From Sedimenticolaceae bacterium (GTDB taxonomy: Bacteria > Pseudomonadota > Gammaproteobacteria > Chromatiales > Chromatiaceae): a DNA stretch of 64,000 nucleotides. The stretch covers positions 7,894-71,893 of the forward strand of contig JBNKKH010000035.1 in assembly GCA_050291725.1 (NCBI GenBank), given 5' to 3'. How positions within the stretch are numbered: the first letter of the stretch is position 1; every line of letters begins with the position of its first letter. The position numbers and the translations under genes are program-made. The notes under the pieces are model-generated. The model was not told the origin of the DNA. It saw nothing but the letters and a program-made list of their open reading frames with translations, and did not search any database. Positions 36,992-37,936 of the stretch are shown here, in pieces.

Positions 36992-37106
36992 GGCGGCGGC
37001 CCGCACCAGCCACACCCCGGCACACGTATCCACTATTGCGGCTGCTCCCTTCCGGGCCTGACCGGGTTCACAGTTTCACGTTGCGAGGGGACCGACACAG
37101 GCCACC
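36992..37106 (-). ncRNA. ffs: Signal recognition particle RNA (4.5S RNA)
   Basis: The minus strand reads GGTGGCCTGTGTCGGTCCCCTCGCAACG...CCGGTCAGGCCCGGAAGGGAGCAGCCGC...GTGTGCCGGGGTGTGGCTGGTGCGGGCCGCCGCC. It is co-linear with E. coli 4.5S RNA, including the domain IV core GGUCAGG(U/C)CCGGAAGG(A/G)AGCAGCC. The 5' and 3' ends pair. It lies upstream of dnaX, a common synteny. Confidence 0.9.
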
Positions 37107-37111
37107 ATAAC

Positions 37112-37137
37112 AAAAAAGACCAGGCAGTTCCTGGTCT
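37112..37137 (-). terminator. Terminator-like hairpin plus T-run ending 5 nt before the ffs 5' end
   Basis: The minus strand reads AGACCAGG-AACTG-CCTGGTCT-TTTTTG, a perfect 8-bp stem. Confidence 0.45.
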
Positions 37138-37155: not shown

Positions 37156-37447
37156 ACGTCAAGACGAGAGGATTACTCACGCTACGCGCTCGTTCTGCTG
37201 ACCTCCGGTCCTGGTCGAACCATCTTTTGAGTCGTAGGTTCGAATCAAATGTATTACATCTGATGTATAAAACTCTCCACTCCATGGAGAACTCTATTTA
37301 TTGGTCGGAGCGAGAGGATTACTCACGCTACGCGTTCGTTCTGCGGACCTCCGGTCCTGGTCGAACCATCTTTTGAGTCGTAGGTTCGAATCAAATATAT
37401 TACATCTGATGTATAAAACTCTCCACTCCATGGAGAACTCTATTTAA
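37156..37447 (-). repeat. Two tandem 146-bp units (about 97% identical) immediately 3' of tRNA-Pro, each ending in a copy of the tRNA 3' end
   Basis: Unit 2 (37302-37447) and unit 1 (37156-37301) differ at about 4 positions outside the first 9 nt of unit 1. TGGTCGGAGCGAGAGGATT (plus strand) recurs at 37302 and 37448, a period of 146. Confidence 0.88.
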
Positions 37448-37524
37448 TGGTCGGAGCGAGAGGATTCGAACCTCCGACCCCCACAACCCCATTGTGGTGC
37501 GCTACCAAGCTGCGCTACGCTCCG
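37448..37524 (-). tRNA. tRNA-Pro (anticodon GGG)
   Basis: The minus strand reads CGGAGCGTAGCGCAGCTTGGTAGCGCACCACAATGGGGTTGTGGGGGTCGGAGGTTCGAATCCTCTCGCTCCGACCA. It has a perfect 7-bp acceptor stem, anticodon loop AUGGGGU and an encoded CCA. It is near-identical in architecture to E. coli proL. Confidence 0.93.
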
Positions 37525-37576
37525 AGAGCGCGCATACTAGGCTTAGAAGCCATATATGTCAACGCTATATTCTACT

Positions 37577-37936
37577 CTACCGCTTGAGAATATGCAGAAC
37601 CTCTTCCAGCTCTGTTCTTAGCTGCTTAATGATATCCTGGCTCTGATGATAATCCTCTTTCACTTCGTTGCCAGTCAGTTGCTGCCTGGCACCACCGATG
37701 GTGAAGCCCTGTTCATACAGCAAATTTCTTATCTGACGGATCATCAGAACATCATGCCGTTGGTAGTAACGCCTGTTTCCCCTTCTTTTAACCGGCTTTA
37801 GCTGAGGAAACTCCTGTTCCCAATACCTGAGCACATGTGGTTTAACGCCACACAGATCGCTAACTTCACCAATGGTGAAATAGCGTTTGCCAGGTATTAC
37901 TGGTAGATCTGCTGTAGTGCTACTCGCGTCCAGCAT
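37577..37936 (-). CDS. MerR-family transcriptional regulator (the conserved ihfA-downstream type)
   Basis: [45 protein letters not shown] helix-turn-helix. It occupies the same position as the MerR gene after ihfA in Pseudomonas. Confidence 0.85.

Follow-up and report, generated by a model that had tools for sequence, protein, structure and literature searches.

Tandem 146-nt units behind tRNA-Pro(GGG) as probable reduced members of the tRNA-linked repeat family

The tRNA-Pro(GGG) locus

In the metagenome-assembled genome of a sulfur-oxidiser-like Sedimenticolaceae bacterium, the tRNA-Pro(GGG) gene is directly followed by two tandem units of 146 nucleotides (nt), the first of which ends in an exact copy of the last 19 nt of the tRNA. 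The locus lies on the minus strand of contig JBNKKH010000035.1, in a 64-kb stretch of DNA that was analysed as a whole and is referred to as the window. The two units are very probably tRNA-linked repeats (TLRs; RtT, Rfam RF00391), which are 3'-trailer modules that end in a copy of the tRNA tail; these are described in PMC8144298 as known behind Escherichia coli tRNA genes since 1978 and as having no assigned function. The features of the locus are as follows, all on the minus strand and in coordinates of the window (R1 is the covariance model described in the next section).

37448–37524 (−): tRNA-Pro(GGG) (ARAGORN; Rfam tRNA, 59.1 bits)
37448–37466 (−): last 19 nt of tRNA-Pro(GGG), the template of the repeated tail
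37302–37447 (−): TLR unit 1, 146 nt (Tandem Repeats Finder; model R1; exact 19-mer)
37302–37320 (−): tail of unit 1, 19/19 identical to the 3' end of tRNA-Pro
37156–37301 (−): TLR unit 2, 146 nt (unit comparison; model R1)
37156–37174 (−): tail of unit 2, degenerate, 13/19 against the tRNA tail
37108–37137 (−): intrinsic terminator, 8-bp stem then TTTTTTGTTAT, closing the tRNA-Pro/TLR transcription unit (terminator scan; congeners retain a hairpin at this position)
37534–37562 (−): predicted sigma-70-like promoter TTGACA-17-TAGTAT, 10 nt 5' of tRNA-Pro (consensus scan, 10/12 matches)
37001–37097 (−): signal recognition particle RNA gene ffs (75 bits), starting about 10 nt beyond the terminator
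37577–37936 (−): small MerR-family gene, downstream of ihfA and pheST

Tandem Repeats Finder reports a head-to-tail repeat over 37165–37466 with a period of 146, 2.1 copies and 97% matches, which, together with the ARAGORN and Rfam results, bears out the tandem 146-bp units behind tRNA-Pro(GGG) that the initial annotation had described from the letters alone. Unit 1 begins at the base right after the CCA of tRNA-Pro. The 19-mer AATCCTCTCGCTCCGACCA has two exact minus-strand occurrences in the window, at 37448–37466 and 37302–37320, against a chance expectation of 0.02; the copy at 37302 is thus exact, as had been stated, and the degenerate third copy that had been placed at 37156 matches at 13/19 positions. 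The count of about four differences between the units stands for their bodies, which differ at four positions, but not for their full length, over which 10/146 positions differ, the other six being in the distal tail. The other features that had been listed are likewise present: the palindromes, the terminator hairpin and, on the other strand, the GGTTCGAATC box.

According to the scans, tRNA-Pro and both units are bracketed by the promoter-like site and the terminator, and the sole strong terminator of the array lies 3' of unit 2. The earlier suggestion that the array would be transcribed as the 3' trailer of tRNA-Pro and end at the hairpin/T-run fits this predicted promoter and terminator. 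The genes neighbouring the array are all housekeeping genes (recR, ybaB, dnaX, ffs, the MerR-family gene, ihfA and pheT), and a check of these neighbours found no integrase or island genes near the array, confirming the absence of an integrase noted before. A separate promoter for ffs was not detected by the promoter scan, so that ffs may be transcribed by read-through or from a promoter overlapping the terminator. As in this genome, the unit is followed by a terminator and then ffs in three of the five congeners that carry it (G003, G004 and G007), which retain the order tRNA-Pro, TLR, terminator, ffs.

Family assignment and reduced architecture

By their hallmark, TLRs terminate in 18–19 bp that exactly repeat the 3' terminus of the tRNA or rRNA lying upstream (PMC8144298). 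Unit 1 carries this tail at 19/19 positions, and unit 2, at 13/19, corresponds to the degenerate last copy of other arrays; unit 1 also lies on the same strand as the tRNA, directly 3' of it and, judging from the predicted promoter and terminator, in one operon with it. The feature is real and of a known kind, namely a reduced new member of the TLR family, and of the origins that had been offered for it, that of a tRNA-derived repeat or small-RNA family is the one borne out.

Searching the whole genome with the Rfam RtT model returned eight sub-threshold matches (best 36.5 bits), each just 3' of a tRNA gene, the tRNAs being Lys-CTT, Tyr, Gln-TTG, Gln-CTG, Ser-TGA, Arg-ACG, Ser-CGA and Pro-GGG. 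TLRs of this genome lie behind eight tRNA genes besides that for Pro and, in addition, behind 5S rRNA. A model-free test, which looked for a second copy of the last 19 nt of each tRNA within 700 nt downstream, found tail copies (exact or with one mismatch) behind Gln-TTG, Gln-CTG, Ser-GCT, Pro-GGG and Lys-CTT, at distances of 146–179 nt. In E. coli K-12, for which PMC8144298, citing Egan & Landy 1978 and Rudd 1999, gives 22 TLRs at ten loci, the RtT model has 18 matches, located behind tyrT/tyrV, proK, the lys/val clusters, serX and the serV-arg cluster. A weak match to HPnc0260 in the Rfam scan of the locus is merely the tRNA end.

The covariance model R1 was built from an alignment of 32 TLRs drawn from 25 other genomes and from other loci (22 from other families of the class, five from other loci of this genome, four from E. 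coli and one from another genus of the family), with no Pro unit of this genus included. Against the window, R1 matched 37302–37412 in unit 1 at 32.9 bits (E = 1.1e-7) and 37171–37246 in unit 2 at 21.1 bits (E = 2.4e-4), and no R1 match was found in the window beyond the two units. In canonical TLRs, the closing helix P1 consists of the tRNA-derived tail and an inverted 5' copy of it, and it covaries with tRNA identity across the 32 TLRs: 7/11 pairs are doubly changed, 0/500 shuffles reach the observed score, and controls in which the partner column was slid collapse. RNAalifold applied to the MAFFT alignment of the 32 TLRs recovered P2 and P5 only, and the helices were then entered by hand and their pairs counted.

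From 5' to 3', each unit consists of a first hairpin (H1), the helix P2, the GGA-loop hairpin P3, the small hairpin P6, GAGUAAUCC and the tRNA tail. In unit 1, these elements are located as follows.

37413–37443 (−): H1, a weak, terminator-like hairpin followed by UUUU, directly 3' of the tRNA (minimum free energy fold; covariation in the genus)
37361–37389 (−): P2, UCGAACC ... GGUUCGA (folds; aligned to P2 of R1)
37345–37357 (−): P3, GGACC-GGA-GGUCC with a GGA loop (genus alignment; aligned to the GGGAG loop of canonical P3)
37325–37335 (−): P6, ACGC-GUA-GCGU, 5' of GAGUAAUCC (sequence)

H1 covaries in the genus alignment (four pairs with double changes), and terminator hairpins occupy the same position in canonical TLRs, as in E. 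coli proK and in other TLRs of this genome. In P2, the 5' strand copies the tRNA T-arm in inverted form and the 3' strand copies GGTTCGA directly; this helix is paired in 98.7% of cells across the 32 TLRs. The five stem pairs of P3 are all standard in six of the seven genus units, the exception being unit 2 of this genome, which breaks one pair; the GGA loop is likewise retained in 6/7 units, with GAA in that of G003. P6 is replaced in metagenome relatives by GGCC-GAA-GGCC, a compensatory swap that supports the small hairpin and speaks against acceptor-like pairing of this segment with the tail. A local acceptor-like minihelix formed by CG.AGCG.GAG and the tail, as proposed by RNAalifold on the genus alignment, was rejected, as the metagenome P6 variant cannot pair with the tail.

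Compared with R1, P2 (GAUUCGAACC...GGUUCGAC), the P3-loop GGAG, GAACG and GAGUAAUCC with the tail are retained in the units, whereas hairpins P4 and P5 and the 5' strand of P1, the closing helix, are gone. On these comparisons, the genus units are a reduced variant of the TLR family. This also changes how the T-arm is divided. The initial annotation had read a T-arm split by a 26-nt insert, and the letters CCGGAGGT, 26 nt, AATCC are indeed present, but CCGGAGGT falls within the conserved hairpin GGACC-GGA-GGUCC, and the family comparison places the split elsewhere, as GGTTCGA, an insert C...GAGTA, and ATCC, with an insert of 42 nt here and of about 85–90 nt in canonical members. Similarly, GCGTAGCG, which had been matched to the 5' region of the tRNA, falls within the small hairpin ACGC-GUA-GCGU, and the match is coincidental, since the metagenome relatives have the GGCC-GAA-GGCC hairpin in its place.

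Several observations weigh against the assignment, or against the model of a transcribed tandem array. The Rfam RtT model itself scores the unit at 16 bits (E = 7.2), below the gathering score of 45 bits. Positions of the Pro units that align to P1 of R1 form non-standard pairs, and the congeners have no conserved complementary 5' strand for this helix (only in this genome could the tail pair with a distal GGAGUGGAGAG), so that the argument for a tRNA-like minihelix, made for canonical TLRs, is weaker here. The UUUU-tailed first hairpin might end part of the transcription before the units are reached, and the duplication is documented in one metagenome assembly only.

Conservation, spread and origin

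Five species of the genus carry one unit of 143–170 nt behind tRNA-Pro(GGG), and at one further congener locus (L022) tRNA-Pro is directly followed by a terminator. The 3' 95 nt of the unit are 88–95% identical to unit 1 across the five congeners, as against 41–55% identity at four-fold degenerate sites of the adjacent MerR-family gene in the same species, which indicates purifying selection on the core. The 5' 50 nt of the unit are 56–71% identical, and this variable part nonetheless folds as a hairpin that shows compensatory changes and has U residues after it. No single argument speaks more strongly against a decaying scar than this purifying selection on the 3' 95 nt. The comparison of copy number with relatives that the initial annotation had recommended gives one unit at tRNA-Pro(GGG) in each of the five congeners and TLRs at other tRNAs in the genome itself; rather than unrelated sequence, the site in these congeners holds the conserved 95 nt. 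The single Pro unit of G007 (L006, 1423–1592) contains an internal 31-nt tandem duplication, ACAAATGATTCGAATCTCCGATTCAAACGTT being present twice and spanning the 5' strand of P2.

It is extremely unlikely that each unit encodes a small basic peptide, by analogy with tpr in E. coli RtT. Unit 1 does contain an Arg/Lys-rich sense open reading frame (ORF) of 45 amino acids (37294–37431, minus strand) and unit 2 one of 69 amino acids, but the start codon of the ORF sits in the variable first hairpin, conservation tracks the hairpins rather than codons, and the longest sense ORFs of the five congeners have other starts, frames and lengths, with one alone sharing the frame. The 45-amino-acid ORF was rejected as a candidate, not being conserved in start, frame or length.

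Across the class, RtT-like matches at E <= 0.001 were found in 26 of 151 sampled families, and only 5/151 genomes have a match above the Rfam cut-off. For the 29 best RtT matches, a same-strand tRNA lies upstream in 26, usually 12–47 nt away, with an identical 19-nt tail of that tRNA in 15 and a tail with one mismatch in five more. Within the bacterium's own family, R1 detects TLRs in 19 of 41 genera, at 0–27 copies per genome and often in tandem arrays. By the best matches of its MerR-family protein, the genome is of a Chromatiales/Sedimenticolaceae type. The MerR-tRNA-Pro(GGG) neighbourhood is very stable, being present at 72 of 80 orthologous loci (L076–L155; Chromatiales, Woeseiaceae, Steroidobacteraceae and others), and tail copies follow tRNA-Pro(GGG) at four of the 80 loci fetched, with model matches at two; the element is therefore not a fixed feature of tRNA-Pro(GGG). 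In this genome, TLRs occur behind 9/12 tRNAs whose tail starts with AATCC and behind 0/28 others (Fisher p = 8e-7), an association that is partly circular for model-based matches, the model containing AAUCC; the independent count of tail copies gives 5/12 versus 0/28 (p = 0.001).

A second metagenome scan, using the P3 region, found six contigs. The same reduced core also stands behind tRNA-Pro(GGG) in metagenome contigs, and two of these contigs have tandem 142-nt units with a truncated distal copy. Two others, L159 and L162 (SWBX01001376 and SWBY01010130), contain a 3' fragment of tRNA-Arg(ACG), a terminator and the reduced core with a GGACCGGAGGTCC hairpin, followed by a tail that starts Arg-like; the reduced core is thus found with both Pro and Arg tRNAs, whose T-arms agree in their 5' half. 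Taken together, these sequence comparisons describe a TLR family that is old, widespread and patchy, with a core that occurs behind different tRNAs with its tail re-matched, which may reflect mobility or recombination at the shared GGTTCGAATCC.

A single unit in each of the five congeners implies that unit 2 arose here by a recent tandem duplication. The duplication would have come about through unequal recombination or replication slippage between the tRNA 3' end and the unit tail. In such a step the tRNA would serve to refresh the proximal tail, and the distal tail, being older, would be free to decay, which would explain the exact tRNA-proximal tail and the decayed distal one. Arrays with a degenerate or truncated distal copy are also found in contigs L157 and L161, in G023, in L136 and in E. 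coli tyrT, and the exact proximal and decayed distal tails, here and in independent contigs, point to array growth through recombination with the tRNA's 3' terminus.

This pattern also bears on whether the second unit could be an assembly artefact, for example two strain variants joined in tandem, the organism itself having one unit as its congeners do. The metagenome assembly comprises 36 contigs and is 87% complete, all five element-bearing congeners have one unit, and in the scan of the metagenome collection no independent contig was found for the unit-unit junction. On the other hand, the 10 differences between the units and a degeneration confined specifically to the distal tail are the pattern of real arrays, the arrays just listed repeat it independently, and the flanks of the array join cleanly to tRNA-Pro on one side and to the terminator on the other. 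An artefact is for these reasons considered very unlikely.

The origin first favoured for the units, as scars of serial integration and excision at a tRNA-Pro attB with each event regenerating the tRNA 3' end, is given hardly any credence here. Integrases do leave direct repeats of the tRNA 3' end, and this genome contains a possible att remnant elsewhere: on contig C25 (19327–19560, minus strand), a terminator and a TLR lie behind the 3' half of tRNA-Lys(CTT), from the anticodon loop to CCA. This segment duplicates the end of the tRNA-Lys(CTT)+TLR locus on contig C36 and has the look of the side displaced when an element integrated into tRNA-Lys. At tRNA-Pro, however, integrase and island genes are missing from the vicinity of the array, and the units share 97% identity from end to end, as expected of tandem duplication rather than of independent insertions. 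The spacer DNA forms a conserved core with homology to those of TLRs behind many unrelated tRNAs, in this and in other genomes, and behind 5S rRNA, and is 88–95% conserved among congeners with near-saturated silent sites.

A different form of mobility would have TLRs as non-autonomous mobile cassettes that insert into tRNA genes at the T-loop, restore the 3' end of the gene and bring along an inverted target copy as an 'address', the Pro units being a fixed, degenerate insertion. Such a reading concerns the spread of the family and is compatible with the identity of the units as TLRs. It would account for the patchy occurrence of the element (the four tail copies among 80 loci and the 19/41 family genera, with their range of copy numbers), for the preference for AATCC-tail tRNAs, for the canonical 5' arm being an inverted copy of the tRNA 3' end, and for the occurrence of the same reduced core behind tRNA-Pro(GGG) and tRNA-Arg(ACG), both with GTCGGAGGTTCGAATCCT and each with a tail that fits its host tRNA. 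Nevertheless, no transposase, recombinase or target-site-duplication signature was found, the AATCC association is in part circular, as stated above, and within the genus the element shows vertical inheritance at one site under purifying selection. The cassette origin is regarded as unlikely.

Processing, possible role and relation to known repeats

As TLRs, the units would be expressed from the tRNA-Pro promoter, with read-through of the weak first hairpin leading to co-transcription of the array. The tRNA-like 3' end of each unit could then engage the tRNA 3'-maturation pathway, with an RNase E cut just downstream and subsequent exonuclease trimming, and each unit may be released as an RNA of about 110–146 nt ending in ...CUCCGACCA. 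This model is built on analogy with E. coli, in which the RttR RNA is annotated as ending exactly at the TLR tail, and in which the 3' end of RrB maps 3 nt past its repeat and RNase E processing has been proposed (PMC8144298).

As regards the role of the predicted released RNA, a GGA-recognising protein such as CsrA is the best lead that the sequences offer. Among 28 non-enteric TLRs, GGA is present in the P3 loop of 17/28 and in the P6 loop of 17/28, with stems that covary; the TLR behind tRNA-Gln of this genome gives an example of such a GGA loop, GGACAGGAUGUCC, which we take to resemble the CsrA consensus from SELEX (systematic evolution of ligands by exponential enrichment). The Pro units retain the P3 hairpin GGACC-GGA-GGUCC and have four GGA each, two of them in predicted triloops, and the genome has a csrA gene. 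The units could on these grounds be CsrA/RsmA-binding trailer RNAs whose GGA hairpins titrate CsrA in step with stable-RNA transcription. In vitro, the 5S-linked TLRs of E. coli do bind Hfq and CsrA (PMC8144298). The Pro units, though, are without the AGGA-loop P6, the P3 GGA is a triloop closed by G-C pairs, which matches known CsrA sites poorly, and GAA takes its place in one congener; E. coli tRNA-linked TLRs score <0.01 in a CsrA-RNA predictor, and deletion of rrA, rrB and rrF in E. coli had modest phenotypes only (PMC8144298). As an account of what the units do, titration of CsrA is thus improbable on balance.

A similarly speculative extension, to which we attach little probability, treats the reduced variant as a 'natural deletion', in which the selected module of about 95 nt would comprise P2, the GGA hairpin, the small hairpin and the tail, the minihelix would be dispensable, and TLRs would be trailer RNAs presenting GGA to a CsrA-type protein. 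If true, TLRs would report the rate of tRNA and rRNA transcription to post-transcriptional control, and the repeats described in 1978 would gain a function. In a separate observation on contig C13 of this genome (19502–20411, plus strand), csrA is directly followed by tRNA-Ser(GCT), a TLR, tRNA-Arg(ACG) and a further TLR, a neighbourhood that corresponds to csrA-serV-argV of E. coli, where TLRs also occur.

Irrespective of the role, a reduced unit that is about 90% identical against nearly saturated silent sites argues for function over junk, the selected part being about 95 nt long. The TLR family reaches well beyond enterobacteria, mostly with sub-threshold scores, and standard annotation consequently misses its members; repeats such as these should not be labelled as attachment sites or tRNA pseudogenes. 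True attL/attR sites are also direct repeats of a tRNA 3' segment, but they flank kilobases of foreign genes and an integrase, whereas the repeats at tRNA-Pro flank a conserved 127-bp structured core that is common to other tRNA loci.

The type TLRs are the 178-bp repeats and the RtT/RttR RNA of the E. coli tyrT-tyrV operon (Egan & Landy 1978 and Rudd 1999, as cited in PMC8144298). Like E. coli TLRs, the Pro units lie directly 3' of a tRNA on the same strand, end in its last 18–19 nt, form tandem arrays with a degenerate last copy and have a terminator-like hairpin between tRNA and unit; common to both are the core motifs GAU.CGAACC ... GGUUCGAC, GAACG, and GAGUAAUCC followed by the tail. They differ in belonging to a Chromatiales-type host rather than an enterobacterium, in their sub-threshold RtT score of 16 bits, in the loss of the P1 5' strand, P4 and P5, with a core of about 110 instead of about 130 nt, and in the GGA loop of P3, which is absent from E. 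coli tRNA-linked TLRs. The TLR of E. coli proK (K-12, 3708448–3708581) is also located behind a tRNA-Pro, with a terminator hairpin and then the unit, and ends in GAGUAAUCCUCU...CCGACCA; unlike the Pro units, it follows the isoacceptor CGG instead of GGG, has the full canonical structure (RtT 101 bits) and is present as a single copy.

This genome also has 5S-linked repeats. On contig C26 (1–900, plus strand), a 5S rRNA gene is followed by repeated units, each with a copy of the 5S 3' end (AAGTAAGTCACTGCCAGGC) and a terminator, and one of these units has a TLR-type core (R1 match at 746–835), like E. coli rrA, rrB and rrF. The E. coli RNAs RrA, RrB and RrF, of rrnA, rrnB and rrnD, lie between a leaky first terminator and a second one and are made by read-through (PMC8144298). 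Like the Pro units, they finish with the 3'-terminal sequence of the stable RNA upstream, a copy that the authors propose to guide processing by RNase E; they differ in being 5S-linked and in their in vitro binding of Hfq and CsrA. The layout of weak hairpin, TLR and terminator at tRNA-Pro(GGG) matches that of the E. coli rrn operons, and the read-through transcription documented there is predicted for the Pro units here.

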